In this document: piece by piece, positions 15,156 through 47,184 of the stretch | Numbering within the stretch: the first letter of the stretch is position 1 | How the letters are laid out: every line of letters begins with the position of its first letter | Source of the DNA: a bacterium | GTDB lineage: Bacteria > Joyebacterota > Joyebacteria > Joyebacterales > Joyebacteraceae | Reading direction: 5' to 3' | Assembly (NCBI GenBank): GCA_029990205.1 | Contig: JAPEKQ010000004.1 | Location: forward strand, 5,109 to 69,108 | DNA: 64,000 bases | Translations under genes and position numbers: made by a program | The notes under the pieces: model-generated | Databases searched by the model: none | What the model was told of the DNA's origin: nothing | Seen by the model: only the letters and a program-made list of their open reading frames with translations

Positions 15156-15281
15156 ATTCCTCACCTTTCCCGCTTGCTCCGCTACCTCCATGCAATAATT
15201 CCACTTGCCTTCTCGGCTCCATGCAGGCACATTGTACGAACAAGGAGCGCGGCCCTGGTCCTTGCGGACCGGGTGAGCCAT

Positions 15282-15455
15282 GCTTCTGCCCGGGCGACTG
15301 GATGGCTGCGAATCCATCACCAGTCGCCCGCTTTTATGCTATCCGCATGTGATCGTGTTTCTCTCCACGCACGCGATGTTCCCTGCCCATCTTGCCCGCC
15401 CCCCGTCCGGCTGCGAGACCGGACGGAAGGGCAGGCGTTTCCCGAGGGAGGAAAC
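15282..15455 (-). promoter_or_regulatory. Conserved structured 5' leader, copy 2 (candidate cis-regulatory RNA).
   Basis: About 75% identical to 6300-6479. It has the same GUUUCC-ucccucg-GGAAAC hairpin (15437-15455). Its second hairpin, GUCCGG-cugcgaga-CCGGAC, differs from copy 1 at two base pairs, and both changes keep the pairing. Confidence 0.55.
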
Positions 15456-20130: not shown

Positions 20131-20945
20131 ATGCGTATCGATACCGTGAGGGAGTAGCTGGAGCCGAGAACGGGGTGCCGACACCATGTCAGATCGAGAT
20201 CGGGCCGCATCGCCCGCCCGCCGCCGAGTCGGAGCCCGAATGCCGACGACGACGGCTCCAGCATGACCCCGGCCCGGAGACGCAGCCATGACGCGAGGGC
20301 AAGGTCGCACCCGACGGCCGGCGACGGGGCGAACCCGGGCTCTCCTGAGAGCGACGCCAGGACCGTCACGCCATCGAGAACGAGAGCCGCGTCGCTTGAG
20401 ACGCTTGAGGCGACAGGCGATGACAGGATACGTGAGCGCGTGGCGTTCCGAACGGACAGACCAACAACCAGTCTGCCGTGAACAAGCCAGGCCGCGGAAA
20501 GGTCGACCGTACCCGACCACTCCGGCGCGCCTCCCGCCCAGGACAGACAGAGCCCCCGACCACGGACACCGACCACGACGTCCCCTGACCAGCGGCGCAT
20601 TCCCGCGACCTCCACCGTCCCCTCGCGGTAGAGGCGCCCACCGAACGACGATGCTCCGACGGTGAGCCACCTGCCGGCCGACTCCCTGGAGAGAGACACT
20701 GCAGCGCTCCGAAGGTCGGCGAGCCCGTAGAGCTCGGACGATGATGCGCTGATGCGCCACGCGGCCTCTCGCTCCGGTCCGGTCAGCACATCGATCAACT
20801 CCGGAGTCGGACCGGCGCCGCAGACGGCATTGGAGGTAATCGAGAGGACGTCGTGCTCGAACGCAGCTCGCGCCCGGCCCGGGAATGCGCCGAACAGACA
20901 GAGCGACACGAGAACGCCGACGGGGACGAGTATCCGGCGCCTCAT
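20127..20945 (-). CDS. Probable outer-membrane beta-barrel protein (272 aa).
   Basis: Signal peptide MRRRILVPVGVLVSLCLFGAFPGRARA. Amphipathic beta-strand pattern. Overlaps both neighbours (translational coupling). Confidence 0.5.
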   Translation of the reverse strand: MRRRILVPVGVLVSLCLFGAFPGRARAAFEHDVLSITSNAVCGAGPTPELIDVLTGPEREAAWRISASSSELYGLADLRSAAVSLSRESAGRWLTVGASSFGGRLYREGTVEVAGMRRWSGDVVVGVRGRGLCLSWAGGAPEWSGTVDLSAAWLVHGRLVVGLSVRNATRSRILSSPVASSVSSDAALVLDGVTVLASLSGEPGFAPSPAVGCDLALASWLRLRAGVMLEPSSSAFGLRLGGGRAMRPDLDLTWCRHPVLGSSYSLTVSIRI

Positions 20946-24954: not shown

Positions 24955-27444
24955 TCAGATGCGAGATACGGTCGTCCGCCAGCCATCACCGTCCGGTTCG
25001 ACGATGAACTCGAGCGCGGAGCCCGGAGCGAGCGCCGCTTCGACCGTGTCCCCGCGCCTCTGCTCCGCGGCGCCGGGCGGCACCATGGCCGTGAAGCGGA
25101 CGGTCAGTTCCGGGAGGTCGTCACCGGCCGCAATCCTGTAGACACCACTCGGGCCGTCGGGGTTCGGGCTGCCACCATCGGCCGCGGCGTCGCTCCCCTT
25201 CGTCGCGACCGCCTCACCCGTCCGGAAGAAGACGGATGCCGTCCCGGGACCAAGCTGCACGGGGCACGAGACCCAGGGCAGGTCGGGCGGAAGCGCCGGT
25301 GTCACGTCGAGACACCCGTCCGCCATGTCCGGGCGGAGCCCAAGGTAGTCCTGATAGAAGTTCCTGAGGAACTCCGCGAGGCTCCACGCCTGCGAGACGG
25401 TCCCCGCGACGTTCTCGCCCCGTTCGGGCGCCCGCCCATTGCGGAGCTCCGACAGCGTCCCGGCCGCTCCCTCATTGAAAAGGAGGTCGCGGAGAACGCG
25501 CGTCTGCTTCCAGGCCTCGGCGATCCGTCCGCCGCGCACCAGCGCGGTCACCACAGGACCGGTCAGCCAGACCCAGACATCTCCATTGTGATACGCCTCG
25601 TCGAAGTGGTACCGGTCGAGGTCCAGATGGACCGGGTGAAACTCGGGGTCATCCGGGGAGAGCGATGCGACGCCGTGCGGAAGCACGCAGGTCGACAGCA
25701 GCCGGTCGAGAACCGCATCTCGCTGCTCGTCCGTCAGCAGCCCGCCGCCCGGCAGGCTCAGCGCGAACGCCTGGTTCGGTCGATCGCGGCCGTCCGGCGT
25801 CCCGTCGGACAACAGACGATCGTAGAGCGCGTTCTTCCCGCCATTCCAGAATGCGGCAACGAACGATGCCGTGACCCTGCCCGCGATCTCGCGCCACCGG
25901 TCGGCGCGATCGTCGGAAGCACCACCGGATCCGTCGCCGGCTCCGTCACCGGTCCCGTCACCGGCCGCCGACGCACCCGCCGCGATCTCGGCCAGGCGGG
26001 CCCCCGCGAGGAGCGCCTCGCGCCACAACACCTGGATCTCGACCGCCCGGTCGCCACGAGGCGACCATGGACCGTTCTCCCCCACCGCGTCCATCCATGT
26101 CTCGGCATCGCCGTGCCTGATGAGGAGGTCGTCGCCTACCCGATGGAGCAGCGCGCCGACGATCGCACGCTCGATGAACGGCAGGATCTCGGCCGCGAAG
26201 TCAACGTCCCCCGAGTAGAGGACGTACTCCAGCGCCTCCCGGACGAACCACCACGTCCCGTCGGCCGTGTTGTAGTAGATCTCACCCGGCATCGCCAGGT
26301 TCGGGATCCGTCCGTACGTCGTGTCGCTCTCATCGGTGTTCTGGAGTCCGGCGCACGTTCTCAGCACCTCGCGCGCCACGTCGAACTCACCGCGGCAGAG
26401 ACACGCGCCGGGGAGCGAGATGAACGTGTCGCGTCCCCAGTAGTTCGGGAACCAGTGCAGACCGGCGAAGATGCCGACCCCCATCTGATTCATAATGAGC
26501 GCGTCGACCGAGGCTGTCGCCCACCGGAGGGCGTATGCAAGGTCTGAATCGGCGCACGCAACGCCGACACGGTCCAGCAGCTCGCAGACCCTTCGCATCT
26601 TCGCGTCGTAGAACGAGAGCTCGTCCCGGATTCCGCGAAGCGCGAGCGCCTTCGCCTCCTCCAGCGTGTCGCCAACGGCGACGGCGACCGTCACGGTCGC
26701 GGCGAAGCTCTCCTCGCCCTCGAGTTCGAACGTGAGGCGCCCGGGAACGAAGGGAGTCGCTGACGCCATCGACCGGCGCACGGAGTCGCGCTCGTAGGTT
26801 GTCTCCCGATAACTGGACTCGCCGTCAAAGACGACGGGGCGGTCGCACGCGATCGCCAGCCAGACAGGCCAGTCGTCATCCTCCGTTCTCGAGGGGTGGT
26901 CGCTGCGACGGATACAGAGAACGCCGTCATCGGACTCCCATCGCACGTCGTACTCCGGACGCACCTCTTCCCAGATGCTCCGGATATCGACCCGCGGGAC
27001 GAAAGAGGCTTGTCCTCGCCAGCTCGAATCGTACGACACGAGGAGCAGGTTCTCATCGTCCGCGAGGAACACGGTCTCGGTCGTTCCGTCCGCGACGTAG
27101 GTGCGCGTCATGCTCTGCGGGAGCACGACGGCATTCCTCAGACTCCAGACCGCCGCGGGCCGGTCGCCGACAACGAGGTCCCAGCCCTCGAGGAACTTGT
27201 GAAGCTCGACGGTAAGACCGCGGTAGTTGCGCGTTCTCGCCGTGCCCGTCTCGCCGCAGAAATACGCCTTCTGACGGTTCGTGAGGATGTACTCGCGCGA
27301 GCCGCCGCGCGTCACGACGATCGGAAGCCCGTGCTTCCGTCCGCGCGTGGGCAGGGAGGCGGCGGGGTCGGCCGGACTGGACGAGCTCCGCGAGCCCCGG
27401 GGGTCGCCCGGACAGGCGCTGTGCTTGTGCAACTTCTCTGCCAT
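24955..27444 (-). CDS. Cytoplasmic amylo-alpha-1,6-glucosidase / glycogen-debranching-enzyme family protein (GDE_N plus GDE_C, (alpha/alpha)6 barrel).
   Basis: No signal peptide. Motifs GIFAGLHWFPNYWGRDTFISLPG and NGDVWVWLTG are typical of the GDE_C family. Start uncertain (ATG 27444 or GTG 27471). Confidence 0.7.
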   Translation of the reverse strand: MAEKLHKHSACPGDPRGSRSSSSPADPAASLPTRGRKHGLPIVVTRGGSREYILTNRQKAYFCGETGTARTRNYRGLTVELHKFLEGWDLVVGDRPAAVWSLRNAVVLPQSMTRTYVADGTTETVFLADDENLLLVSYDSSWRGQASFVPRVDIRSIWEEVRPEYDVRWESDDGVLCIRRSDHPSRTEDDDWPVWLAIACDRPVVFDGESSYRETTYERDSVRRSMASATPFVPGRLTFELEGEESFAATVTVAVAVGDTLEEAKALALRGIRDELSFYDAKMRRVCELLDRVGVACADSDLAYALRWATASVDALIMNQMGVGIFAGLHWFPNYWGRDTFISLPGACLCRGEFDVAREVLRTCAGLQNTDESDTTYGRIPNLAMPGEIYYNTADGTWWFVREALEYVLYSGDVDFAAEILPFIERAIVGALLHRVGDDLLIRHGDAETWMDAVGENGPWSPRGDRAVEIQVLWREALLAGARLAEIAAGASAAGDGTGDGAGDGSGGASDDRADRWREIAGRVTASFVAAFWNGGKNALYDRLLSDGTPDGRDRPNQAFALSLPGGGLLTDEQRDAVLDRLLSTCVLPHGVASLSPDDPEFHPVHLDLDRYHFDEAYHNGDVWVWLTGPVVTALVRGGRIAEAWKQTRVLRDLLFNEGAAGTLSELRNGRAPERGENVAGTVSQAWSLAEFLRNFYQDYLGLRPDMADGCLDVTPALPPDLPWVSCPVQLGPGTASVFFRTGEAVATKGSDAAADGGSPNPDGPSGVYRIAAGDDLPELTVRFTAMVPPGAAEQRRGDTVEAALAPGSALEFIVEPDGDGWRTTVSRI

Positions 27445-27537
27445 ATGCCTCAATCCAAGAGAGCGCCGCACTTCATCGTGTCGACGCTCTCCAGTGTGTC
27501 ACTTCTGTTGTCACCTGCGCAAGACTGATGGGCAGTA

Positions 27538-29997
27538 TCATTCCACCACGACGACCGAGTTCCTCCCGCCGTACGGGTCGGACACGAACTCGGGGTTGCC
27601 CTCGTCCTCAAACCAGCGCGAACCGCCGTCGCTGACGAACTTGTACTGATAGGTCCCCGGCTCAAGTTCGATGACGACAGTCCAGACATTGTCGCCGTCC
27701 TCGTCGGACATGGGCGTCGCGTCGGTGCTCCAGCCATTGAAGTCCCCGGCCAGATGAACCGTGACACCGAGTTCGTCCCGGGTGCTGAACAGCACGCCGC
27801 CGTCGACCATCACCGGTCCCGCGAGCAGGGTCGCGTCATCCTGACTGTCGGCACGCGCCATCGAACCACCGCCGCCGACGCCCGTCGAGCCGGTCAGCAC
27901 CGGCACGGACAGGAATTCCGGCACCTCGTCCCCCATGATCTCGTACACGTGAGAGAGCGTCTTGCGGAAGATCATGTCGAACGCGTCCTCGAGGGACGTG
28001 GTCTGGTCATCGCCGTACCACCAGAACCAGTCGCTTCCTTCCGCGGCCAGCATCTCATCGTACGCGCGCTCGAGCGTCGGGCCGTCGACCTCGCCGCTCC
28101 GTTCGCGAGCCTCAAGATGGTCGCGGACCGTGGCCAGGTACTCCCACGCTCTGTTCTCCTCGGGCTCACCGATCCACGTCGCGAAGTTGTGGCTGATCCA
28201 GGACCCGGCCCAGAGCTTCGGGAGCGTCTCGGTCGGAGGGTTGTCGGCCAGATACTCGGCGACCGTGACGGTGTTGAGCCACTCCGCCTGCTCCATCTGC
28301 GAATACCACGAGTGGAAGAACTCCTTGCCGTCGTTCTGGAACCACTCCCACGCATTCTCGCCGTCGAGGATGATCGGGACGACGTAGTCGACGTCATCAC
28401 TGCCGAGCTGCCGATGGATCGAGTGCAGGCTCCGCATCATCGCGTTGGCCGCCTCCACCCCATCCAGCCGGCTGAAGTTGAAGCCGATGTCATCTGAGAG
28501 GCGGTGATCGCGGAAGATCATGGCGACCCGCGCGCCCTCCTCGCCCGCCCAGTACATCGTGTACTGCTGACGCGGCGAGAGACTTCCGGCACCCAGCGTC
28601 CGCTGGAGCACCTGGTCGTCCGACGCCATCCAGAGAAGACCGGCGTTCGCGACCGCGGGAACGATCTCCTGCGCGACCGAGCCCTCGCCCGGCCAGAGAC
28701 CGGCGGGCGGCGCGCCGAAGCGCTCCTCGTAGTACTCGACCGCGAGGTCGAGATGGCGACCCACATCCTCACGGCGGGCGAACCGCTTCGCGGGCAGCGC
28801 CGTCCCCGGCATCGCCACGCGCGCCAGCTCGGTGTCGTGGATGAGCGGCAGGATAGGATGATAGAACGGCGTCGTGGTCACCTCGATCTGCCCGGCGTCC
28901 TGGAGCCGCCTGTGAACCGCCACGACGTTCTCCATGATCGCGCGCTGTGCTTCGAGGATGTCGACCTTGTCTGCTTCGGTGTACCCGCGCTCCTTCTCAA
29001 TGAGATGGCGCACGGTCACGACGCGCCCGTCCTCGAGCTCGACATCGCCGTCCTGGAAGTCCGGATCGAACCACGCGAGATTGAACCAGACCTGGAGGTC
29101 GCGCCAGTCCTGCTCGCTGAATGTCGCAGCCGATGCGCGGAGCTCGTCGGGTTCGTCCCCGCCCTTCATTCCCTTCAGCTCTGCGTATCGCGGCCACACG
29201 TGGATCATGTTGTCCCAGTGCGCGTTGAAGAAGTGCGTCAGCAGATAGACCTGGTCGGTCTCGGTGAGGTCACACGCGGGCTTGAGCGTCATGCGGTAGT
29301 ACGCGTCGCACGACACCCCGGCGTCGAGCGCCTCGAGCAGGTCCTCAAGCTGCATCAGAAGAATCGGCGTGAGGTTCACGGTGAAGTGAACGCCCGGGTA
29401 GTCATCGAGGATCGCGACCATGTCGTAGTAGTCCTTGATCGCGTGAAGACGCACCCACGGCTCCATGTACTCGCCGGTATCGAGGTCCTTGAGGTACTTC
29501 GGCTGATGCTGGTGCCAGATGATGGCGAGGTTGATCGGCCGGCCGGCGGACTCGAGCGTTCCCACGATCGGCTCGTGCACCGCGTCGCCCTCGAGCGACC
29601 CGAGCACGACCGCTCCGTCATCGGCGACCGACAGCACGCTGTTGAACCCACCGTGACCGTCATCGGTCTTCTCGGGGTTGTGCGGGTCGGGCTCCCACGA
29701 GACTCCGCCGTCGACCACGAACTTGTACTGCCACGTCCTCCCCGCCTGGAGGTCGAGCACGACGTCCCACACGCCGTCGCCGTCCTCGTCGGTCATGGCC
29801 AGCGCGGCCGGGTCCCAGCCGTTGAACTCGCCGGCGAGATGCACGGTCCGCGCGCTCGAATGCGCGAACGTGAAGAGGACGCCGCCCTCGACCGCGACCG
29901 GGGCCGCCGACGTGGCGGCTGACGCCGCAGCGGGGACGAGTGCGATCATCGACGCCAGCGCGAGAACAACCGGGATACGCATTGATGCTCTTGTCAT
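27538..29997 (-). CDS. Secreted GH57 family alpha-glucan-active enzyme flanked by N- and C-terminal CBM48 (glycogen/starch-binding, E-set) modules.
   Basis: Signal peptide MTRASMRIPVVLALASMIALVPAAASA. CBM48-like VHLAGEFNGW...YKFVVDG...EPDPHNP occurs twice. GH57 regions WHQHQP, HAIKDYY, LWPGEGSVAQE, ILDGENAWEW. Confidence 0.8.
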   Translation of the reverse strand: MTRASMRIPVVLALASMIALVPAAASAATSAAPVAVEGGVLFTFAHSSARTVHLAGEFNGWDPAALAMTDEDGDGVWDVVLDLQAGRTWQYKFVVDGGVSWEPDPHNPEKTDDGHGGFNSVLSVADDGAVVLGSLEGDAVHEPIVGTLESAGRPINLAIIWHQHQPKYLKDLDTGEYMEPWVRLHAIKDYYDMVAILDDYPGVHFTVNLTPILLMQLEDLLEALDAGVSCDAYYRMTLKPACDLTETDQVYLLTHFFNAHWDNMIHVWPRYAELKGMKGGDEPDELRASAATFSEQDWRDLQVWFNLAWFDPDFQDGDVELEDGRVVTVRHLIEKERGYTEADKVDILEAQRAIMENVVAVHRRLQDAGQIEVTTTPFYHPILPLIHDTELARVAMPGTALPAKRFARREDVGRHLDLAVEYYEERFGAPPAGLWPGEGSVAQEIVPAVANAGLLWMASDDQVLQRTLGAGSLSPRQQYTMYWAGEEGARVAMIFRDHRLSDDIGFNFSRLDGVEAANAMMRSLHSIHRQLGSDDVDYVVPIILDGENAWEWFQNDGKEFFHSWYSQMEQAEWLNTVTVAEYLADNPPTETLPKLWAGSWISHNFATWIGEPEENRAWEYLATVRDHLEARERSGEVDGPTLERAYDEMLAAEGSDWFWWYGDDQTTSLEDAFDMIFRKTLSHVYEIMGDEVPEFLSVPVLTGSTGVGGGGSMARADSQDDATLLAGPVMVDGGVLFSTRDELGVTVHLAGDFNGWSTDATPMSDEDGDNVWTVVIELEPGTYQYKFVSDGGSRWFEDEGNPEFVSDPYGGRNSVVVVE

Positions 29998-30009
29998 TGT
30001 GCCTTCCCC

Positions 30010-30810
30010 CTAGTCGATCTCGAGCGCGTCGAGCGTCACGTACTTGCCCTGCTCCAGGTCGTACGCGCCGAGGATCTCCTCCTGCGAACGCGCCTTGCCG
30101 CCGAAGATGCCGAACATCTTCTTCGGAGCCGGGACGATGATGTCATAGATGTTGGGGTCGATGGCGAGATCGTCACCGCCGCCGCCGCGCCACTCCTCGC
30201 AGCGCGCCTTGACGTCTCGGAAGTCTCCGAGACCGCCTGCGCCGTAGTCGTCCTGGAGCCCCACGGCCGGCGTGAACCGCCAGTCCGAGGCAGCCCCGTC
30301 GATCTCATCGATGGGGATCGAGATCCGGATCGTGCCGGCCTCGACGTCGGTCACAACGGTCGCGCCCATGTCGACCTTCTCCGACGAAGCGTCCATCACC
30401 TCAACGGTCTCACCCGCAGCGAAGACCTGATACTCCGAAGGAGCCGAAAGCATCACGTTGGCGTTCCGCCTGAGCTCGCCGTCGCCGCCCTCCTGCGTGT
30501 CGATGGCCACGGCCACCATCGTCAGCCGGTTGCCGATGTCCCACGGGTCCACGAGGTTGCGGATCTTGAAGACGAACACCAGGTCGCCGTTGTCCCGCTC
30601 GATCGCGAACGAGAGCACGTCCGCCTCTCCGCCATCGCCGAAGGCCTCGTTCGTCGGATACGTGTAGTCGCCGTCGCCCGTGTCGTCGCCCTCGGGATCG
30701 GTCCACGAAGCCAGGAGCTCCGCGCTCGCCGAGCCGGCGACCGAAAGCACGAGCGCGCCGACCAGCAGCAACATCAACCATCTCATCGTCGTTCGCGTTG
30801 TTCGTTTCAT
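30010..30810 (-). CDS. Secreted protein with a glucodextranase DOMON-like domain (hypothetical alpha-glucan binding).
   Basis: Start at the ATG at 30810 (MKRTTRTTMRWLMLLLVGALVLSVAGSASA). Motif DPEGDDTGDGDYTYP resembles an internal domain of the 1776-aa cargo protein (DDEEGDDHGPNQ...YYHYP). The family assignment is from memory and tentative. Confidence 0.55.
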   Translation of the reverse strand: MKRTTRTTMRWLMLLLVGALVLSVAGSASAELLASWTDPEGDDTGDGDYTYPTNEAFGDGGEADVLSFAIERDNGDLVFVFKIRNLVDPWDIGNRLTMVAVAIDTQEGGDGELRRNANVMLSAPSEYQVFAAGETVEVMDASSEKVDMGATVVTDVEAGTIRISIPIDEIDGAASDWRFTPAVGLQDDYGAGGLGDFRDVKARCEEWRGGGGDDLAIDPNIYDIIVPAPKKMFGIFGGKARSQEEILGAYDLEQGKYVTLDALEID

Positions 30811-30921
30811 CGTTCTCCCCCCTGTATGGGTCCGGATTGCTCGCGCCGGCAACGGCGCGTCCGCGCGCCGGTGGAGGCGCGGTGGGACGTTCCGCACACG
30901 CGGTGCGGTCGGTCGGTGTCG

Positions 30922-32157
30922 TTACTCGCCGGCCAGAAGCTTGTCGACCTCACCGACCGCGGTGTTGATCGCGTCCTCGACCGACTTCGTCCCGTCGAGC
31001 GCCGCCTGCATCTCCGGGATGAACAGATTCTCGATCTCCGGATAGAACGGCGTCGGCGGCCTGGGAATGGCCGTCTGCATCTGCTCGACGAACGTCGAGA
31101 GATACGGGTGCTCCTCGGATGTGATGGCGTCCATCGCCTTGGTGTTCACGGGGATCTGGCCGAGCGTGAGCGCCCAGTTCCGCTGATTCTCCTCGTTCGC
31201 GACGAACATGAGGAACTCGGCGGCCAACTCGGGATGCTGCGACGTCTTGAAGACGACGAGGTCGTTGCCGCCGACGTTGGTATGGGAACCTGCGGGGCCG
31301 GCGGGAATGAGGCCGACGCCGAAGTCGATGCCCGTCCGCTTCAGACTCTCGACCGCCCACGGTCCGTTGAGGATCATGGCGTACCGGCCGTTCTGGAACC
31401 CGACGTCACCGGTGATACCGCCGGCGCGCCATGCGCCGCCCTCGATACCGTACTCCTCGAACATGTCGACCTTGAGCTGGAAGGCCGCGATGGCCTCCGG
31501 CGTATTGAGCGTGCAGTGCATCAGGTCGTCGGAGAGGAGATCCGCGCCGTACGTGTAGAAGAACGGGAGCGACCACCAGAGCGAGTTGGTCAGGCCGATG
31601 CCGAAGATGCCCTCGTCCTTGTCCGTGAGCCTCTGACCGTATGAGACCAGCTCGTCCCAGGTCGCGGGCGGCGTGTCGGGGTCGAGCCCCGCCTCGCGGA
31701 ACATCTCTCTGTTATAGAAGAGGCACAGGCCGTTGGTCTGGTCCGGGAGTCCGTAGAGCTGTCCGTCGTACATGCAGCTCTGAAGCGCCACCGGGAAGAT
31801 GTCGGCCAGATACTCGGCCGGGACGTACTCGTCGAGCGCCAGGAGCGCGTTCTTGCTCGCAAGCTTCGGAAGGAACGAGACGTCGACGCGCGCGATGTCC
31901 GGCTCGGTCCGCGTGGTGAGCGCCGTCTGGATCTTCGGCTCGGCGCCGGCGAACGGCAGACGCACGACCTCGACGGTCACGCCCGGGTGCGACTCCTCGA
32001 ACCGCGCCACCATCTCCTTGAAGACAGGGTGCTCTTCGTCATTGTAGGTCTGCCAGATCGTGAGCGTGCCGCTCGTGTCACCGCCCCCGCCACCACATCC
32101 CCAGAGCACCAGTCCGGCGAGCAGCAGCGTGCAGACGATCGCGGTCATTCTCTTCAC
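30922..32157 (-). CDS. Carbohydrate ABC transporter substrate-binding lipoprotein (MalE / maltodextrin-binding family).
   Basis: GTG start with GGGGGA Shine-Dalgarno-like sequence. Lipobox LVLWGC. Bacterial extracellular solute-binding family 1 sequence features. Confidence 0.8.
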   Translation of the reverse strand: MKRMTAIVCTLLLAGLVLWGCGGGGGDTSGTLTIWQTYNDEEHPVFKEMVARFEESHPGVTVEVVRLPFAGAEPKIQTALTTRTEPDIARVDVSFLPKLASKNALLALDEYVPAEYLADIFPVALQSCMYDGQLYGLPDQTNGLCLFYNREMFREAGLDPDTPPATWDELVSYGQRLTDKDEGIFGIGLTNSLWWSLPFFYTYGADLLSDDLMHCTLNTPEAIAAFQLKVDMFEEYGIEGGAWRAGGITGDVGFQNGRYAMILNGPWAVESLKRTGIDFGVGLIPAGPAGSHTNVGGNDLVVFKTSQHPELAAEFLMFVANEENQRNWALTLGQIPVNTKAMDAITSEEHPYLSTFVEQMQTAIPRPPTPFYPEIENLFIPEMQAALDGTKSVEDAINTAVGEVDKLLAGE

Positions 32158-32188
32158 GTGTTCCCCCTTGCGTCTGACTCCGGCTGCG

Positions 32189-33016
32189 CTATTCCTTCAC
32201 CGCACCCATCGTCATTCCCTCAATGAAGTAGCGCTGCGCGAAGAAGAACAGCACAGCAATGGGCAGGATCGAGATGCACGACCCCGCCATCTTGAGCGTA
32301 TAGAGCTCCTCGTGGGCGCTCTTGAACATCGCGAGTCCGACCGGCACGGTGTAGAGCCGTTCGACGTTCGTGACGATGAGCTGCCAGAGGAAGTTGTTCC
32401 AGTGGAACTGGAATGTCAGCAGAAAGAGCGTCGCGATGATGGGAATCGAGAGCGGGACCATGATGGTCGTGAAGACCTGTCGCTCGCTCGCGCCGTCCAT
32501 CTCCGCGGCCTCGATGAGTTCGCTTGGAATGGTCAGCATGTACTGCCGCATGAGGAAGAGCCCGAACACGTTCGCCAGGTGCGGGATGATCATCGCCTTG
32601 TAGGTGTTCATCCACCCGAGCTTCGTGATGATGGCGAACTGCGGGACGACGTACATCATCCCCGGGATCATGAGCGACAGAAGCAGGAGCCCGAACAACC
32701 GGTCCCGCATGAAGAACTGCTTCTTGGCAAAGACGTAGCCGGCCAGCGACGCGAAGAGCGTCGCGAACGCCGCCGCGGTCGTGGCGACGATGACGCTGTT
32801 GACGAAGTAGCGGCCGAAGCCGAAGTCGCCAAGCACGCGCTTGAAATTCGAGATCGTCGGACCCGTGGGGAACAGCTCGGTCGAGAACGCCTGCCCGGGC
32901 TCCTTGAACGCCGTCACGACCATCCAGAAGAACGGGAACAACACCACGATCGCCGCGGCCGTCAGCCCGACGTAGAGCGCGATGGTCTTCCAGACCGATG
33001 TTCTCTGTACTGCCAC
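32189..33016 (-). CDS. Carbohydrate ABC transporter permease (MalG-like).
   Basis: Six predicted TM segments and the EAA motif region (ELIEAAEMDGASERQVF). Start moved to the internal GTG (AGGAGA Shine-Dalgarno-like sequence) so that it does not overlap the upstream permease by 100 nt. Confidence 0.7.
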   Translation of the reverse strand: MAVQRTSVWKTIALYVGLTAAAIVVLFPFFWMVVTAFKEPGQAFSTELFPTGPTISNFKRVLGDFGFGRYFVNSVIVATTAAAFATLFASLAGYVFAKKQFFMRDRLFGLLLLSLMIPGMMYVVPQFAIITKLGWMNTYKAMIIPHLANVFGLFLMRQYMLTIPSELIEAAEMDGASERQVFTTIMVPLSIPIIATLFLLTFQFHWNNFLWQLIVTNVERLYTVPVGLAMFKSAHEELYTLKMAGSCISILPIAVLFFFAQRYFIEGMTMGAVKE

Positions 33017-33060
33017 GATCTCTCCTGCGGTCGCCGCGCGGCCCGAGGGCCGTGCGCGGT

Positions 33061-34032
33061 CTAGGTGTTGTCCGACCCGAGGAACTTCCTGTTCACCAGC
33101 GATACGATCACGGTCAGCGCCAGCAGCACATACGACATCGCCGAGGCATAGCCGAGGCGCCACTGGTTGTAGAACGCGTCAAAGACGTAGTACCCCGTCA
33201 CCCACGTCGCGCCGAGCGCCCGTCCGCCGACATCGACGTTCGGACCGCCGCTCGTCATCGCGTAGACCTCCACGAACGCATTCAGTGCGCTGATGGTCCC
33301 GATGATGACCATGAAGAACGTGATCGGCTTGACGAGCGGAAGCGTGATGCGGGTGAACCGCTGCCACGGCGTCGCCCCATCGATCTCGGCCGCCTCGTAG
33401 AGCGACGGTGAGATGTTCTGGATGGCCGAGAGATAGAGGATCATGCCGAAGCCGGCGCCCTTGAGGACGTTGGCGAACACGACCGACGGCATCGCCGATC
33501 CGGGCATCCCGAGGAACCCCTTCTCGGTGAACGCCGTGATCCCGATACTCTCGAAGAACTGCACGAGGATACCCACGTGCGGGCTGTAGATGAGCGTCCA
33601 GACGATGCCCACCACGAGCATGTCCAGCACGTACGGCAGGAAGAACGCGCTCCGGTAGACGGCCACCGCTTTGAGCCGGTTGTTCAGAAGGAGCGCAAGC
33701 GTGAGCGATGCTGCGATGCCCGCCGGGATGATCAGGACCGCGTAGTAGAGCGTCATCGCGACCGACCACCAGAACTTCACGTCCGTGAACAACTTGATGA
33801 AGTTCTTGAACCCGACGAACTGGAGCCCGCCGAACACGTCAAACGAGTCGGCGGGCACCTGATGCATTGCGAGGTACAGCGAGTAGACGACCGGGTACAC
33901 AAGGAAGACGAGGAAGATGATCAGGAACGGCGCAAGGAACGTATACGCAGTCAGGTTGTCCCTGGCGTGCTTCGTCAGCGACCAGGACCTTCCCGCCCGG
34001 GCTTCTCCGCCTCCTGTCCCCCGCTCGCTCAC
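33061..34032 (-). CDS. Carbohydrate ABC transporter permease (MalF-like).
   Basis: GTG start overlapping the upstream stop (GTGA). EAA motif (LYEAAEIDGATPWQRF). Multiple TM helices. Confidence 0.75.
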   Translation of the reverse strand: MSERGTGGGEARAGRSWSLTKHARDNLTAYTFLAPFLIIFLVFLVYPVVYSLYLAMHQVPADSFDVFGGLQFVGFKNFIKLFTDVKFWWSVAMTLYYAVLIIPAGIAASLTLALLLNNRLKAVAVYRSAFFLPYVLDMLVVGIVWTLIYSPHVGILVQFFESIGITAFTEKGFLGMPGSAMPSVVFANVLKGAGFGMILYLSAIQNISPSLYEAAEIDGATPWQRFTRITLPLVKPITFFMVIIGTISALNAFVEVYAMTSGGPNVDVGGRALGATWVTGYYVFDAFYNQWRLGYASAMSYVLLALTVIVSLVNRKFLGSDNT

Positions 34033-34820
34033 TCGACCGTCAGCACCGAGTTCTTGCCCCCGTAGGGGTCAGAGATGACGTCCGGGTTGGCCGGGTCTTC
34101 CATCCACGTCCCGTCCACCACGAACTTGTACTCGTACTGCCCGGGCTCGAGCATGAGCGTGATCACCCAGATCCCGTCGTCGTTCTTCGCCATCGCGTCC
34201 GCGTCGGGGCTCCATGCATTGAACGAGCCGGCGATGAAGACCGCGCCCGCGTCCGGCATGTCGAGCGACACATCGACCGGGAACGCCCCCTCCGGCGCCA
34301 GCGCTCCCCGGGGCTCCGGCGGCGGGTCGGCCTGCGCGGCCTCCTCGCGGCCGCCGGTGACCGTGCCCGTGACGATCTCGGCATCGTAACGGATGGTCGC
34401 CGGCACGATGACCATCGAGTTCTCGATGCCGCTCTCGTAGTCCGTGTCCGGGTTGTTCGGATCGATCTCCCACGTCACGCCGCCGTCGAGCACGAACTTG
34501 TACTGATAGCGCCCCGGGGGCAGCGGAATGACGATCGACCAGACGCCGTCGCCGTCCGCATCATGCATAGGGTCGATGGCCGGATCGTAGCGACCGCCGC
34601 CCTGCGTCCCACCCCAGTTGTTGAAGTTGCCCGCCAGTGTCACCTGGCGCGCCGAGGGCGCGTAGTAGTTGAAGATGAACCCGTCCGAGACCTCGTGAGG
34701 CGGAGGAAGCCGGTCCTCGATCACGCTCAGCACGCCCGCGCACGACGATATGACCATCGCCGCCGCGGCGAGCGCGAGAACGAGGGCGAGACGGGTACGT
34801 CGCGTTCTGTTCATACGCAT
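34029..34820 (-). CDS. Surface lipoprotein with two tandem CBM48 / E-set glucan-binding modules (a functional analogue of SusE/SusF).
   Basis: Signal/lipobox MRMNRTRRTRLALVLALAAAAMVISSC. Two copies of the ...AGNFNNW...YQYKFV(L/V)DG...W..DP.NP module. Confidence 0.7.
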   Translation of the reverse strand: MRMNRTRRTRLALVLALAAAAMVISSCAGVLSVIEDRLPPPHEVSDGFIFNYYAPSARQVTLAGNFNNWGGTQGGGRYDPAIDPMHDADGDGVWSIVIPLPPGRYQYKFVLDGGVTWEIDPNNPDTDYESGIENSMVIVPATIRYDAEIVTGTVTGGREEAAQADPPPEPRGALAPEGAFPVDVSLDMPDAGAVFIAGSFNAWSPDADAMAKNDDGIWVITLMLEPGQYEYKFVVDGTWMEDPANPDVISDPYGGKNSVLTVE

Positions 34821-34834
34821 CGTCCTCTCCCCTC

Positions 34835-36952
34835 CTAGAACGTGATGAGCGCCATGACGCCGAAGGTCTTCATCTCTGAGAGCGCTTCCTCGGCATCGAG
34901 GACACTCGTGCCGTCGTTGTCCCACATGTAGTTCGAGCGCCAGCGCTCACGGCCGTTGCCTCGGCCCTCGACCGGCGTGTCCATGTAGCTCAGCGGGTCG
35001 ACACCGTAGCCGACCCTGAACTGGATGTTCGGACGCGGGCTGTAGACGATCGCCACGTACGGCGCTATGAACGACTCGTCGTCGTAGGTCGTCCCGCGAC
35101 CGCTCGTGGTGTCGCTCACCGTCGTCGTCGGCACATCCTTGTACGTCATGTGCCGGACGTCGAAGAGAACGCTCCAGTCCTGGTTCAGGCTGTAACCGCC
35201 GCTGAAGATCGCTTCCATCGTATCGTAGGTCCCGTAGTCGTCATCGGGGTCGTACTCGATCGTGCGCGACTCGCCCGCGATCTGGACCCAGAGACGGTCC
35301 TCCATGATGTCCGCGCGCGCCCGGCCTCCGAACCGCGTGGCGGTCAGGTCGAGTTCGTCCTCACCGAACCAGATCGCCATCGAATCCGTGAACACGGCGT
35401 TGTAGCTCATGGTGGCGTACTCGACGCCGAGATCGAAGATACCCAGCTCGAACGCGCCATCGAACTCGATGGCCGTTCCGTCCAGCTCGGGGATCGGACC
35501 CGTCACGCTCGCTACGAGTTCGGAGCTTCCGCCGCCGACCTCGGTGTACGTGCGAAGGGTCCCGACCGGCCAGAGGTCACCCCAGCCTGACGTCCCCATA
35601 GCCATGAAGTGTGAGGAGCTGGCGGATGTGAACTCCTCCCCGTCCTCCATCCCGTCGATCTGGATCTTGGCGAACTCGAGGTCGAGATCGAGCGGCTCCA
35701 CCGGATCGGCCGAGAGCTCCACCAGGATGATGCTGCCCTCCATGTCGCCGACCGGCACGTCGATCGCGCCGTTGCCGTACTCGTCGCCCTCAACCTTCTC
35801 GTAGTTGCCCATGTTCCACAGGCTCTCGTAGTTGTAGAGGGCGTAGCCGGCCGTGATACCGTACTGCTCAGTGATCGGGTAGCTCGCGTCGAACGTGATG
35901 AACCGCTCGGTGTTCGAGAGCTCGAACCAGTCGCTCGACGTCCCGGACTCGGCGAGGTAGTCGTCGAGGTCCGGACTCGTGTTCGTACCCTGGAAGCCGA
36001 TCCACCAGTCGTCGCGCCACGAAGCAAACGTCCCGCCCAGCGCAACCGGGCCGACGGGCCGCGTCAGGCGCAGACCGATGAGATCGGTGCCCGTGTTGTC
36101 ATACTCGTCGGGATCATTGAGGACGTCGGCATCGTACGCGTTGGTGTAGACACCGGTCAGGTCGAAATCCCAGAAGTCGGTCGTGAGGATCAGACCCTGG
36201 GTGCCGCGGCCGAACGCGATGTGTTCCTCGGGAATGGTCCCGAGAAGGTCCCGGTGTCCCACGAGCTCGAACGGCTCGTCGAACTGGATCAGCTCCTCAT
36301 TGTAGAAGCCGGTCACCGAGAACAGGTCGCCCTCGAGCGCGACGCGGCCGTCATAGAGGTCGGCCGAGATCTCATTCATGTCGCCCTCGCCCGAGTAGAG
36401 GCGGAGGGTCGCCCGACCGGTCACCTGGTCGGTCACCGTCGGGACGACGGAGATAAAGACCTCATGATCCGGACGAACCAGACGCCACGACGGAGTCTCG
36501 TCGTCCTCGGACTGCGTGTTGTAGTTGGCACGGTACCAGCCCTCGAGACGGACACGCGAGTTGACCTGCGTGTTCGAGATGGCGGTCGTCGTGTCAGTCG
36601 CCGCGACTTCACCGCCGTCGTCGACAACGAGAAGCGAGTTGCCGTAGTCGCCGGCCGTCTTCGGGTTGTCCGGGTCGGCCACCCACTGCGAACCGTTCAC
36701 GACGAACTTGTACTCGTAGCTCCCCGCCCCCAGGTCCAGGACCACACGCCACGTGCCGTCGTCCCCGAGGGTCATCGGGTTCTCGTTCATGTTCCAGTTG
36801 TTGAAGATGCCGGCCAGGCTGACGCTCGCCGCGTACGGATCGTAGTAGCTGAACTCGATACCGCCGTCCACAGCCACGATCCCCGCGTGCGACGCCATGG
36901 CGAAGACAAGCACCGCCAGCAACACCACGCTCAGAAGATTCTTCGTTCTCAT
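34835..36952 (-). CDS. Outer-membrane beta-barrel protein with an N-terminal CBM48 glucan-binding module (candidate maltooligosaccharide porin or transporter).
   Basis: Signal peptide MRTKNLLSVVLLAVLVFAMASHA. CBM48 module VSLAGIFNNWNMNENPM...YEYKFVVNGSQWVADPDNP. Roughly 580 aa of alternating-hydrophobic beta-strand sequence ending in the aromatic C-terminus ...FGVMALITF. Confidence 0.6.
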   Translation of the reverse strand: MRTKNLLSVVLLAVLVFAMASHAGIVAVDGGIEFSYYDPYAASVSLAGIFNNWNMNENPMTLGDDGTWRVVLDLGAGSYEYKFVVNGSQWVADPDNPKTAGDYGNSLLVVDDGGEVAATDTTTAISNTQVNSRVRLEGWYRANYNTQSEDDETPSWRLVRPDHEVFISVVPTVTDQVTGRATLRLYSGEGDMNEISADLYDGRVALEGDLFSVTGFYNEELIQFDEPFELVGHRDLLGTIPEEHIAFGRGTQGLILTTDFWDFDLTGVYTNAYDADVLNDPDEYDNTGTDLIGLRLTRPVGPVALGGTFASWRDDWWIGFQGTNTSPDLDDYLAESGTSSDWFELSNTERFITFDASYPITEQYGITAGYALYNYESLWNMGNYEKVEGDEYGNGAIDVPVGDMEGSIILVELSADPVEPLDLDLEFAKIQIDGMEDGEEFTSASSSHFMAMGTSGWGDLWPVGTLRTYTEVGGGSSELVASVTGPIPELDGTAIEFDGAFELGIFDLGVEYATMSYNAVFTDSMAIWFGEDELDLTATRFGGRARADIMEDRLWVQIAGESRTIEYDPDDDYGTYDTMEAIFSGGYSLNQDWSVLFDVRHMTYKDVPTTTVSDTTSGRGTTYDDESFIAPYVAIVYSPRPNIQFRVGYGVDPLSYMDTPVEGRGNGRERWRSNYMWDNDGTSVLDAEEALSEMKTFGVMALITF

Positions 36953-37031
36953 ACGCTCTTCTCCGCTCGGGCGGGGCGGGCGCGTGCGCCGATGCCCCGC
37001 TGTCGGTCGCCCGTGGGGCGCCGACGGCTCG

Positions 37032-38495
37032 CTAGTAATAGATCCTTACGAATGCCTTGAACACCTGCTCTGTCGTCGTCGACGAGCCGTGGTCGACGAA
37101 GTCGCCGTCGTTCGTGAAGTCGTTGCTGTGGTCCGAATTGCCGTACTCCACGAAGAACTCGGCGCCCGACCAGGCAAGGTACCTGATCTGGGCGAACGCC
37201 GTCTGACGCGACTCGGTGAGCTCGTCGACGTTCATCACGCGCGCGTAGAACTTCCAGTTGTCGCTCAGGTTGACGTTCACTCCGAACCCGTAGGCTGTCA
37301 GTTCGTAGTCGGAGTCGATGTCCTTGATGCGGTACTGGAGCACGAGTTTGACGAGCCGGTTCTCACCGGTGACCTCGGTGAAGAGGTTCGGCCAGACGCC
37401 ATCGCGGTTCTCGTAGACCTTGTACTCAACCTTGCCGGTGAAGCCGTTGACAAACTCGAGGTATGCCTCGGTCCCCCACTCCTGCTTGACTCCCTCCTCG
37501 GCGTCGTCCCCCTCCTTCGGCGAATCCTTGTAGGTCCACCCCTTCAGGTTGATCGCCTTGGTCGGGATGCGGTAGTGCGCTTCGGCGTAGTACCTGCTGT
37601 ATCCGTTCTTGTTCTTCTGGTCTCCGCTCGCCATCTGCTCGGCGTAGAAGATCTCGCCGATGTCCTCATAGGAGACCAGGAACCGCAGCGGCCCGACCTT
37701 GAGGTCGCGAAGCTCGGTCTTGAAACCGTTGCGTCCTTCGTCACCCGGGTGCCGCGGATCACGCGATGTGTTCCGGCCGTACTCGGTCGCCCAGGTCATC
37801 CGGCCGAAACGACGGAGCGCCGGGACCAGCTCGCCGACCGCGACCTCGCCGTCGAACGCGATGACCTCATCGAAGTCCGAGTAGTCGCACCGGGCATACG
37901 TGCTTCCGAGCACGATCCGGTCGCTCGCGAAGTCGCGGGTCACGCGACCGCCTCGGTACTCGTTCTCGTAGCTCGTGTCGCTGTAGAACGCGGCGCCCTG
38001 GAACCCGTAGGTGTCCCAGAAGTCGAGTCGGATTCCCTGCGCGCGCGGACCGTACGAGTCATCCTTCACCCATCCCTGGTCGAGCACGCCGAGGAGCGGT
38101 TCGTTGAGCCAGAACCGGTCCTGCCTCGAGAAGAGGTACGCCTCAACACGGCTCCCCCGGAACCGGATGTGTCCCTCCTTGAGGTAGAGGAGGGAAGTCT
38201 TCTCGTACGTGTCCGTCTCCTCCGAATCCTGCCAGTTGTTGGACTCCGCGACGAGCTTCAGGAACGTGTCGATATCCGTCCACGGGCTGGTCTTCAGCCT
38301 GAGCTCGGCGTAGAGCCGCGGGTTGTCGAGTCCCCAGCTCGGGTCTCCACCTCCGCTGCTCCTGATCTCCGTCATCAGATCGGAGTACCCCTCCAGCGTC
38401 GTGATAGCCGCCGCCGGCGGAGCCAGAGCCAGGAGCAGGACGGTCGCAAGGAACACTGCGGTTCCGGCCGTCCCGAATCTCCTCTGTCGTGTCAA
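37032..38495 (-). CDS. Outer-membrane beta-barrel protein (488 aa).
   Basis: TTG start with AAGGAG 6 nt upstream gives MTRQRRFGTAGTAVFLATVLLLALAPPAAA. C-terminal ...KAFVRIYY. Confidence 0.55.
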   Translation of the reverse strand: MTRQRRFGTAGTAVFLATVLLLALAPPAAAITTLEGYSDLMTEIRSSGGGDPSWGLDNPRLYAELRLKTSPWTDIDTFLKLVAESNNWQDSEETDTYEKTSLLYLKEGHIRFRGSRVEAYLFSRQDRFWLNEPLLGVLDQGWVKDDSYGPRAQGIRLDFWDTYGFQGAAFYSDTSYENEYRGGRVTRDFASDRIVLGSTYARCDYSDFDEVIAFDGEVAVGELVPALRRFGRMTWATEYGRNTSRDPRHPGDEGRNGFKTELRDLKVGPLRFLVSYEDIGEIFYAEQMASGDQKNKNGYSRYYAEAHYRIPTKAINLKGWTYKDSPKEGDDAEEGVKQEWGTEAYLEFVNGFTGKVEYKVYENRDGVWPNLFTEVTGENRLVKLVLQYRIKDIDSDYELTAYGFGVNVNLSDNWKFYARVMNVDELTESRQTAFAQIRYLAWSGAEFFVEYGNSDHSNDFTNDGDFVDHGSSTTTEQVFKAFVRIYY

Positions 38496-38612
38496 GGGCT
38501 GCTCCTTGTCTCCGTCACACCCTCGTGACTTCCTGCGTGTCTTCAGTGTCGTGATACACGAATCGGTCCGCGGCACCTGCGCCGGCTGCGCGCCGGCCGC
38601 TGCCCGCGAACC

Positions 38613-39500
38613 CTACCAGACGAACATCGCCGAGAGCCGATAGAGACTCCCGATGCGCCGCTCGGAGAGCAGCGCCACGTCGACCAGGAGGTTCTTCGAC
38701 TTGATGCCGACTCCCGCCGTGATCCGGTCGCGGTTCATCCCCGCCCGGAGCGCGAACGCGTCGTAGAACCAGACCTCGGTGCCGATGTTGATGGATGACT
38801 TCTCGTCGTAGTACGCCGGCGCCTCGCGCGGAACGCGCCACTCCGCCGACATGAGCATCACACCGCGGAACAGATACGACCCGCCGATCCGCATCTCGGC
38901 GTAAACCGGGTCGATGTCGTCCGGCGCGGTCGTGTCGAGAAGCTGAAGCTCCGGCTCGCCGAGGTTCCGGAGGACGCCGCCGGCGCTCCAACTCCCTCGG
39001 CGGTAGAGCACTCCGAGATCGGCCGCGAACGCCGCGTCGCCGTCCCCGCTGAAGGCGGGGTCGTTGTAGTACTCGTATCCGGGCGCGTCGATCGAGAACC
39101 GCTTGAGCGCGACGCCCGCAGCGAGCCCCTCGACAAAACACCCGTTGAAACCGTATCCGGCGATGAGCGTGTCCTCGTTGTAGAGGTCCTCCGCCCCGGT
39201 CCGCATCCACCCGGCGGCCGCGCCGTGCGTCCCGTTCCCGTACCCGGCGATCGCCGCGTCCTCGGACACGCCGTCCACACCGTAGACGCTGGTGCGCATC
39301 CCGAACACCTGGATCTGCTCGAGCGTCGCGAGACCCGCGGGATTCCAGTGCAGCGCCGTGACATCATCCGCGACGGCGACGAACGCGCCCCCCATGCCCA
39401 TCGCCCGCGCGCCGAGTTCGGTCTCAACGAAGTTGGCCGAGACTGTCGCCGGTATGAGCGCGAGCGCCGCGCAGAGGACGAGCGTTGCTGTTCTCTTCAT
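38613..39500 (-). CDS. FadL-fold outer-membrane beta-barrel of the T9SS-associated PorV/PorQ/PorP(SprF) type.
   Basis: Signal peptide MKRTATLVLCAALALIPATVSA. N-terminal motif GARAMGMGGAFVAVADDVTALHWNPAGLA is characteristic of the FadL/PorV-like family. C-terminus ends in aromatic ...MFVW. Located 9 bp downstream of a T9SS cargo gene. Confidence 0.6.
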   Translation of the reverse strand: MKRTATLVLCAALALIPATVSANFVETELGARAMGMGGAFVAVADDVTALHWNPAGLATLEQIQVFGMRTSVYGVDGVSEDAAIAGYGNGTHGAAAGWMRTGAEDLYNEDTLIAGYGFNGCFVEGLAAGVALKRFSIDAPGYEYYNDPAFSGDGDAAFAADLGVLYRRGSWSAGGVLRNLGEPELQLLDTTAPDDIDPVYAEMRIGGSYLFRGVMLMSAEWRVPREAPAYYDEKSSINIGTEVWFYDAFALRAGMNRDRITAGVGIKSKNLLVDVALLSERRIGSLYRLSAMFVW

Positions 39501-39509
39501 GTGCGCTCC

Positions 39510-44840: not shown

Positions 44841-44982
44841 TCGAGACTCCTCAGACGGGCCGCCACGCACGGCGGCGATGCATCGAAACCGGAGGGGCGG
44901 AGCCACATGCGCCACCCCACTGGGGGATGTGGTGGCCCTCCTCCGGTCCTGCCGTTGCAGTGATTGTCATTTTGGTGGGAAA

Positions 44983-45011
44983 ATGCTATCAGACGCGGGC
45001 CGCGCGGTCAA
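44983..45011 (-). promoter_or_regulatory. Candidate sigma70-type promoter TTGACC-17-TAGCAT for the giant cargo gene.
   Basis: Minus strand reads cTTGACCgcgcggcccgcgtctgaTAGCATttt. It is followed by a leader of about 136 nt holding the hairpin GCCACC...GGTGGC (44908-44938). Confidence 0.4.
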
Positions 45012-45081
45012 GCCGGACGCACGGAACACGCCTGTATGTGGGCTCTTACGCGGTATCCAGGAGGTCTGGGAGGTCGCCCGA

Positions 45082-45864: not shown

Positions 45865-45904
45865 CGCCTCCTCCTTCCGGACGCGGTGCGTCCTTCGGTG
45901 GGAA

Positions 45905-46804: not shown

Positions 46805-46843
46805 TGCTGCGTCCGCCTTCCGCTGGCGCGACCGTGAGGTCCG

Positions 46844-46987: not shown

Positions 46988-47184
46988 CCACGCTGTGCCC
47001 GCCCATCGGCGGACCGTCGAACCGCTTGTCCGGACACCGCAGACGCGGTCGTCCGACACGTGAAACAGCATTCCACGTCAGTGGGGAGTACTCTTCGATT
47101 CTAGGCCGTCACGTGAGGGTCCGTCAAGCGGAAAGCCCCTTGCCGCTGGGGGTTTGCGCGGACGCCAACCATCGCACAGGCAAC

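Follow-up and report, generated by a model that had tools for sequence, protein, structure and literature searches.

Candidate alpha-glucan utilisation operon without SusC/SusD, combining a CBM48-fused outer-membrane barrel with components of the type IX secretion type

The window analysed here comprises 64,000 nucleotides of contig JAPEKQ010000004.1 (assembly GCA_029990205.1), from a bacterium of the GTDB lineage Joyebacterota. On its minus strand, between positions 24955 and 44840, it carries a run of genes that we read as one 11-gene operon for the utilisation of an alpha-glucan (starch, glycogen or pullulan-type), with neither SusC/SusD nor a TonB-gated transporter. This explanation, taken as a whole, is the one we favour, with modest confidence, while a role of the locus in alpha-glucan catabolism and uptake is well supported. 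Glycan capture by diderm bacteria is understood mainly via SusC/SusD, TonB-dependent transporters and small sugar porins. The locus combines common alpha-glucan enzymes and an ATP-binding cassette (ABC) importer with an outer-membrane module in which a CBM48 starch-binding module is fused to a large beta-barrel, next to a paralogous barrel, a PorV-like barrel and a giant protein carrying a putative sorting domain of the type IX secretion system (T9SS).

Results

Extent and composition of the proposed operon

An original prediction, made from the sequence of the window, had described eight co-directional, tightly spaced genes running from position 36952 down to the GDE gene. All of them were found on the minus strand at the coordinates given there, and Pfam scans recovered the domains it had named (Table 1). 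The intergenic gaps from the 705-aa barrel gene to the GDE gene were 14, -4, 41, 40, 111, 12 and 93 nt. Beginning the locus at 36952 left out three conserved upstream genes, including the one for the operon's only protein with a T9SS-type export domain. Because their synteny is conserved, these three genes are counted in the operon, and the unit would extend upstream to approximately 44840. The region is a long minus-strand gene run with a GC content of 62-69%. The identical locus was assembled on 13 contigs from several independent sequencing runs and is therefore not an assembly artefact.

Pfam scans of the locus proteins and of the large open reading frames (ORFs) of the window gave no match to SusC/SusD, Plug or TonB_dep_Rec. 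An adjacent pair of SusC-like and SusD-like genes, as in Sus-like polysaccharide-utilisation loci (PULs), does not occur in the locus. Homologues of the locus proteins belong to records named Candidatus Eisenbacteria. These results agree with the proposal of an alpha-glucan locus without SusC/SusD in a diderm outside the Bacteroidia. In a promoter scan of positions 26000-45900, the sole sigma-70-like site lay just upstream of the first gene, against 2.3 sites expected by chance, and is thus suggestive by position only. A terminator scan found no minus-strand terminators between genes; both scans were essentially uninformative.

Table 1. Features of the alpha-glucan locus, in order of position in the window
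Feature	Coordinates	Strand	Description
GDE-family amylo-alpha-1,6-glucosidase	24955..27444	-	Predicted cytoplasmic, no signal peptide; GDE_C PF06202 E 1.6e-63
CBM48-GH57-CBM48 enzyme	27538..29997	-	Amylopullulanase-like, Sec signal only; GH57 PF03065 E 9e-54
Stand-alone Glucodextran_C protein	30010..30810	-	Sec-exported, DOMON clan; E 3e-37
Solute-binding protein	30922..32148	-	Lipoprotein, lipobox LWGC; SBP_bac_1 E 9e-49
CUT1-family ABC permease, MalG/UgpE type	32189..33019	-	BPD_transp_1 E 8e-18; GlcU, UgpE and MalG matches, all under their cutoffs
CUT1-family ABC permease, MalF/UgpA type	33061..34032	-	BPD_transp_1 E 2e-16; UgpA, GlcT and MalF matches, all under their equivalog cutoffs
2xCBM48 lipoprotein	34029..34820	-	263 aa, lipobox ISSC; two CBM48 modules, E 1e-24
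CBM48 barrel (B705)	34835..36952	-	705 aa; signal peptide, CBM48 at residues 23-110, disordered linker 119-131, barrel of about 22 strands 133-704
B487	37032..38495	-	487 aa; plug-less large beta-barrel without N-terminal module, distant paralogue of the CBM48 barrel
PorV/PorQ-family-like outer-membrane barrel	38613..39500	-	295 aa; probable partner or anchor for the C-terminal domain of the giant protein
Giant secreted multidomain protein	39510..44840	-	1776 aa; signal peptide, CarboxypepD_reg and Big_1 Ig-like repeats, Glucodextran_C, T9SS-type C-terminal domain
Sigma-70-like promoter match	44983..45011	-	TTGACC-17-TAGCAT, just upstream of the first gene; weak evidence

Two plug-less barrels, one carrying a starch-binding module

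In the CBM48 barrel (B705), residues 30-107 matched CBM_48 (E 9e-12) and AMPK1_CBM (E 2e-9) in Pfam, and the remaining 570 residues or so matched no Pfam family. B705 and B487 are homologous to each other. Both were modelled with confidence (pLDDT 84.7 and 84.5), with approximately 22-24 strands and folds that resemble the FhuA, usher and porin barrels, in each case with the plug absent. All three barrels of the operon terminate in an aromatic residue, which is an invariant Phe in B705 and a Trp in the PorV-like protein. Family scans of B705 and B487 found no plug, TonB box or known sugar-porin family signature, and no sequence match to the LamB (maltoporin) family. Of the hallmarks of a TonB-dependent transporter, the 22-strand barrel is present and the plug and TonB box are not, the N-terminal region of B705 being the CBM48 itself. 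The mature N-terminus of B705, GIVAVDG, was considered as a TonB box and rejected, since it makes up the opening strand of the CBM48 sandwich and is found again in the other CBM48 modules.

Each of the nine full-length barrel homologues scanned had starch-binding modules at its N-terminus: a single or double CBM48 in eight of them and a pair of CBM20 in the ninth. As every scanned member has such a module, its fusion to the barrel is a fixed feature of the family, in which the module type can be swapped. The family is rare, as the barrel-only search returned just 60 cluster representatives among 1.84 billion; one match in it, P0269, which has Listeria-Bacteroides repeats, was spurious. For B487, the homologue P0186 carried a precomputed match to PF27098, an entry that did not match the window's B487 in our Pfam scan; the B487 family may thus have recently been given a Pfam entry.

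The CBM_48 and AMPK1_CBM matches exceeded the Pfam gathering thresholds in all three CBM48 proteins (barrel, lipoprotein and GH57 enzyme). When their five modules were aligned to the glycogen-binding module of AMPK beta-2, the FNxW, YKF, W and N positions were kept in 5/5. These positions correspond to the two Trp, the Lys and the Asn of the AMPK-beta module, which we take to be the sugar-contacting residues. In the alignment of the barrel family, W53, K82, W90 and N105 are invariant. These data support the modules as genuine CBM48, in agreement with the original prediction and not as generic Ig/E-set domains, and glucan binding is predicted from the kept residues. The C-terminal CBM48 of the GH57 enzyme and of the lipoprotein was also considered as a disguised T9SS sorting domain. 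This was rejected, since both score as CBM48 with all sugar-binding positions kept. The two C-termini (27538-27570 and 34029-34060) end near-identically, in GG(K/R)NSV(L/V)(T/V)VE, which could be a domain end or a shared signal.

The modelled strands of B705 are joined alternately by short turns (2-6 aa) and by loops that reach 56 aa, and therefore both barrel termini are expected on the same side. In standard outer-membrane proteins this side is the periplasm, so that the CBM48 would be attached at the periplasmic rim. The CBM48 holds the sequence position of the plug of TonB-dependent transporters, and for this reason the module may instead be inserted in the lumen.

A giant protein with a putative T9SS-type domain and its PorV-like neighbour

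The first gene of the operon codes for a giant protein with Pfam matches to Glucodextran_C (E 1e-27), FlgD_ig (E 2e-7) and CHU_C (E 3e-5). Its last 85 residues or so scored 31 bits for FlgD_ig (cutoff 27) and 24.5 bits for CHU_C (cutoff 27), matched the C-terminal end of PorU and gave no match to TIGR04183. Taken together, the FlgD_ig, CHU_C and PorU matches suggest a T9SS-type sorting domain, and the protein is predicted to be a cell-surface component. Among four homologues, Glucodextran_C and CarboxypepD_reg were present in 4/4, Big_1 in 3/4 and C-terminal-domain matches in 2/4. No catalytic domain was found in the giant protein, and an internal BLAST of its N-terminal region against its middle region gave E 0.1 only.

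The PorV-like gene starts 9 nt downstream of the stop of the giant gene. Its product gave weak PorP, PorV and FadL matches in Pfam and probably serves as partner or anchor for the C-terminal domain of the giant protein. Within the operon only the giant protein carries a T9SS-type domain, and three other proteins of the window, outside the operon, also have one. One large protein at 537-6167 (minus strand, 1876 aa), which has a right-handed beta-helix and ends, like the giant protein, in a domain of the FlgD_ig type, is a probable T9SS cargo as well; the adjoining 559-aa ORF showed a weak GH5 cellulase match, just under threshold.

Enzymes and importer

The closest solved structure to the GH57 domain was the amylopullulanase of Aquifex aeolicus (AaApu; E 1e-72). 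E438 and D545 of the window's enzyme align with its catalytic residues Glu256 and Asp352 (PMC12106739), indicating that the catalytic pair (nucleophile Glu, acid/base Asp) is intact; an amylopullulanase-like specificity is suggested by the similarity to AaApu only. The combination of CBM48 and GH57, which the original prediction had called uncommon, occurs in almost all of the 120 homologue clusters listed and is thus not rare in metagenomes. Many of these relatives are 1000-1150-aa fusions that include Glucodextran_C, and the two contigs L016 and L058, whose proteins are examples, have no separate Glucodextran_C gene. The stand-alone gene of the window would be the split counterpart of the domain fused to GH57 in relatives, and this fusion therefore ties the Glucodextran_C protein functionally to the GH57 enzyme. 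The protein aligns with residues 778-842 of glucodextranase 1ug9. Its earlier label of DOMON-like is acceptable, since Glucodextran_C belongs to the DOMON-like superfamily, has a CBM9-like fold and is found in glucodextranase and in GH57 amylopullulanases; alpha-glucan binding by the domain is suspected and unproven (PMC10074034). The GDE protein scored E 1.5e-43 (150 bits) for the archaeal-type gde model TIGR01561, below its 364-bit cutoff, and weakly matched the glucosidase region of eukaryotic debranching enzymes.

The SBP_bac_1 protein and the two BPD_transp_1 permeases together constitute a CUT1-family importer. The nearest solved relatives of the binding protein include 8art, a 'putative secreted maltose-binding protein' (E 9e-47), and the acarbose/maltose binder GacH (E 5e-41). 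None of the three proteins reaches the MalE, MalF or MalG equivalog cutoff, so the description of these proteins as MalE/F/G-like holds at the level of the CUT1 family and not at that of the equivalogs. No ABC_tran match and no LSGGQ/Walker A pair were found within the window, which bears out the prediction that no ABC ATPase is encoded, and the cognate MalK/MsmK ATPase of this importer would lie elsewhere. A related Krumholzibacteriota locus (L031) carries a MalK-type ATPase (ABC_tran, OB_MalK and TOBE_2) and a GDE.

Periplasmic or surface handling of the glucan

Because they have Sec signal peptides only, the GH57 enzyme and the stand-alone Glucodextran_C protein are assigned to the periplasm by default. 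The original prediction had placed the GH57 outside the cell and assigned starch capture to CBM48 modules, that of the barrel included. In such a scheme, all CBM48 modules, whether in the barrel, in the lipoprotein or in the GH57, would be exposed at the surface, the enzyme would cut the captured starch and the products would enter via the barrel. Several points speak for it: the modules are genuine and keep their sugar-binding residues, the 25-aa disordered linker would be long enough to span the barrel lumen, one barrel homologue has a weak SusF_SusE match and no other extracellular amylase is visible in the locus. Also, the tandem starch-binding lipoproteins SusE/SusF are surface-exposed in Bacteroides. 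We nevertheless regard surface handling as unlikely. The T9SS C-terminal-domain Pfam is absent from the GH57 and from all 120 homologue clusters listed, although the giant protein and other secreted proteins have such a domain, and the strand and loop pattern of the modelled barrel sets its N-terminus at the periplasmic rim. In addition, no acidic lipoprotein export motif was seen by eye after the lipobox cysteine, and the scheme leaves out the conserved genes for the giant protein, the PorV-like barrel and B487. Handling in the periplasm is thus favoured, since the giant protein is the only one in the operon with a T9SS-type domain, the GH57 has a Sec signal only and the CBM48 of the barrel is predicted at the periplasmic rim.

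Conservation of the outer-membrane module in related loci

A scan of one genome per species returned 78 related loci, whose gene content was determined by tblastn with the window proteins. A B487 homologue was present in 52 loci, and the CBM48 barrel was the next gene in 51/52. The PorV-like gene lay upstream in 35 loci and the giant gene in 34, a shortfall that stems partly from truncated contigs. According to the record titles, the loci belong to Candidatus Eisenbacteria, Krumholzibacteriota, Fibrobacteraceae, Gemmatimonas/Gemmatimonadota, Zixibacteria, Latescibacteria and WOR-3, with no Bacteroidota representative among the barrel-pair loci. In most of the related loci the gene after the barrel codes for a small protein with CBM48. 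In the Eisenbacteria-like ones the permeases, binding protein, Glucodextran_C protein, GH57 and GDE come directly after, as in the window. Distant loci have other neighbours, which still fit alpha-glucan use: GH13 enzymes bearing 3-5 CBM48, a further GH13, CBM20 proteins, binding proteins and permeases. Altogether, GH57/GDE or multi-CBM48 GH13 enzymes lie near the barrel pair in many loci. Four distant loci (L022, L025, L021 and L031) contain extra proteins of 445-883 aa whose only match is a T9SS-type C-terminal domain, plus small CBM20 proteins, so that the set of surface proteins differs from lineage to lineage.

This distribution bears on two further explanations. According to the first, the four upstream genes would form a surface adhesin platform, in which the barrels and the PorV-like protein anchor a giant starch-adhesion protein and maltodextrins enter by general porins. 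Barrels of the PorV, PorQ and PorP families are known to anchor or shuttle T9SS cargo, the PorV-like gene follows the giant gene at 9 nt, and neither large barrel shows a plug, a TonB box or a known sugar-porin signature, all of which would fit a platform. However, one barrel has a CBM48 or CBM20 at its N-terminus throughout the family, which suggests that it handles glucan directly, 22-24 strands exceed what an anchor needs, and 17/51 barrel-pair loci had no upstream PorV-like gene detected by tblastn (some contigs being truncated, others giving no match). On these grounds we judge the adhesin platform improbable, a little more so than surface capture. According to the second explanation, the module would export or remodel an endogenous alpha-glucan (capsule, exopolysaccharide or periplasmic glucan), with a periplasmic domain that hands polymer to the barrel as in PgaA, BcsC and AlgE. 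No glycosyltransferase or synthase was found in this locus or in the related loci examined, which hold hydrolases (GH57, GH13, GDE) and binding-protein-dependent importers, together with the MalK-type ATPase in L031. Since synthases are absent while importers and hydrolases are present, export is the least likely of these alternatives, and we think it very improbable.

Proposed mechanism

The uptake reading builds on the domain identities, the barrel folds, the conservation of catalytic and sugar-binding residues, the synteny and the obligatory fusion of a starch-binding module to the barrel; the localisations, direction of transport, physical contacts and exact substrate that it assigns are all predicted. 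The giant Glucodextran_C protein, exported by the T9SS and held at the cell surface by the PorV/PorQ-like barrel, would contact the glucan. The paralogous plug-less barrels, B487 and the CBM48 barrel, would offer a TonB-independent passage across the outer membrane for alpha-glucan chains or maltodextrins. On the periplasmic side, the CBM48 of the barrel, extending on its flexible linker from the rim, and the 2xCBM48 lipoprotein would capture the incoming glucan, which the CBM48-GH57-CBM48 enzyme would cut together with the Glucodextran_C protein. The binding protein and the two CUT1 permeases would then import the oligosaccharides with energy from an ATPase encoded elsewhere, and the cytoplasmic GDE would remove alpha-1,6 branches.

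Several observations weigh against this scheme. No extracellular hydrolase is evident in the locus, which leaves the feeding of polymer into the barrel unexplained. Plug-less barrels of 22 strands would require occluding loops to avoid leakage, and the CBM48 of the barrel could instead lie within the lumen or reach through it to the cell surface. In the giant protein no domain is proven to bind sugar, as Glucodextran_C is not an established carbohydrate-binding module (PMC10074034). The first 240 residues of this protein, which may resemble CBM9/DOMON, gave nothing in segment Pfam scans, in a search of a 14-sequence profile against PDB sequences or in Pfam scans of each member. The PorV-like barrel scored 77.3 bits for NF033709 (PorV_fam; E 1.6e-21), below the cutoff of 90. 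Signal peptides and lipoboxes were judged by eye from translations, and the related genomes found are all metagenome-assembled. Finally, the 3' boundary of the operon is placed by function and synteny only, since the co-directional run continues downstream.

We see some chance that the outer-membrane module represents a new type of translocon. A more specific version, in which the paired barrels, with CBM48 or CBM20 in place of the plug, reel alpha-glucan chains into the periplasm independently of TonB while the carbohydrate-binding modules act as a ratchet that feeds periplasmic GH57 or GH13, is speculative and, as we see it, rather doubtful.

Genes around the proposed operon

Beyond the GDE gene the run in the same direction goes on after 17 nt with a 727-aa membrane protein without family match (TM727; 22754-24937, minus strand), followed by a protein in which a pair of lamin-tail (LTD) domains is combined with a C-terminal domain of the T9SS type (20945-22690, minus strand). 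Both genes follow GDE or GH57 in the Eisenbacteria-like loci L006-L008, L012, L015, L016, L018 and L061, and they may be co-transcribed with the locus or merely syntenic. The 272-aa ORF after the LTD protein was considered as a second PorV-like partner and rejected, as it showed no similarity and no family match. Directly upstream of the locus, positions 45082-49958 (minus strand) code for a SIR2-family deacetylase, a 4Fe-4S (Fer4_5) membrane protein and a pyruvate phosphate dikinase; the SIR2 and Fer4_5 genes are also upstream in the identical-source contigs. A polysaccharide biosynthesis cluster at 50139-63519 comprises a GT4-family sugar transferase, a C5-epimerase-like protein, a DegT aminotransferase, a double GT4 glycosyltransferase, PGA_cap and a Polysacc_synt flippase, and nothing ties it to the alpha-glucan locus. 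At 9723-11396 (minus strand) lies a secretin (PF00263, E 5e-40) with TPR; the neighbouring region, 8408-15338, holds several ORFs without family match, and these genes may together encode a type II secretion system or a type IV pilus.

Discussion

The conserved module described here (a CBM-fused barrel with its paralogue, a PorV-like barrel and a predicted surface protein of the T9SS type) sits beside alpha-glucan enzymes in at least seven, mostly uncultured, phyla of the Fibrobacteres-Chlorobi-Bacteroidetes (FCB) group, and gives a functional context to two unannotated protein families, B487 and the B705 barrel. If the module serves in uptake, it would explain how lineages that are widespread in soil and sediment can compete for starch or glycogen although they lack Sus. 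It would also constitute a new kind of link between the T9SS and nutrient acquisition, and would offer a well-defined candidate, open to experiment, for the TonB-independent uptake of polymer chains. Should the translocon reading be true, it would be the first identified machinery for the long-proposed uptake of polysaccharide chains in FCB bacteria outside the Sus paradigm of Bacteroidota. A search of open-access papers and bioRxiv brought up no account of either a CBM-fused barrel or this outer-membrane module, which agrees with the original view of the system as undescribed; a mention of CBM48 in a Fibrobacter paper was discarded as a precedent because it concerns GH9 cellulases.

The GH57, CBM48, GDE and CUT1 components are ordinary, while the outer-membrane module and its link to T9SS-type components appear to be new. 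Compared with SusCDEFG of Bacteroides and Sus-like PULs, the locus has no SusD, plug or TonB box, and a CBM48 occupies the sequence position of the plug. It has in addition a paralogue of the first barrel, a PorV-like barrel and a putative T9SS cargo, would import across the inner membrane by an ABC system and has no evident surface amylase. The overall logic of the proposed model is similar to that of LamB/MalS/MalEFGK2 in Escherichia coli. LamB maltoporin is an 18-strand trimeric porin, whereas the barrels here have approximately 22-24 strands, one is CBM-fused and neither matches the LamB family. The locus has GH57 with CBM48 in place of the GH13 MalS, no ATPase gene of its own and a linkage to T9SS components.

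With the GH57 amylopullulanases the enzyme shares its catalytic domain, as judged by the match to AaApu, and the catalytic Glu/Asp common to both (PMC12106739). The association of Glucodextran_C with GH57 was already known, archaeal enzymes with a Glucodextran_C region included (PMC10074034). In contrast to those enzymes, the one described here, whose activity is predicted, has two flanking CBM48 and a signal peptide, and its Glucodextran_C lies in a separate adjacent gene. In Cytophaga hutchinsonii and Fibrobacter succinogenes, cellulose chains are thought to cross the outer membrane and to be cleaved by periplasmic endo-enzymes (PMC3079729). The present locus resembles that idea in that these are FCB bacteria and every identifiable hydrolase of the locus is without an export domain. 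It differs in that the substrate would be an alpha-glucan and not cellulose, and in that the cellulose model has no identified translocon; chain threading here is a proposal only. Finally, SprB-SprF and PorZ-PorQ are examples of T9SS cargo with a dedicated partner of the PorP/PorV/PorQ family. The arrangement here is similar, in that the gene of the giant protein, with its putative T9SS-type domain at the C-terminus, is directly followed by that of a small FadL-like barrel resembling PorV/PorQ. In comparison, the barrel here has a family score of 77 against the 90-bit cutoff, and the pair sits within a carbohydrate operon together with two more barrels.

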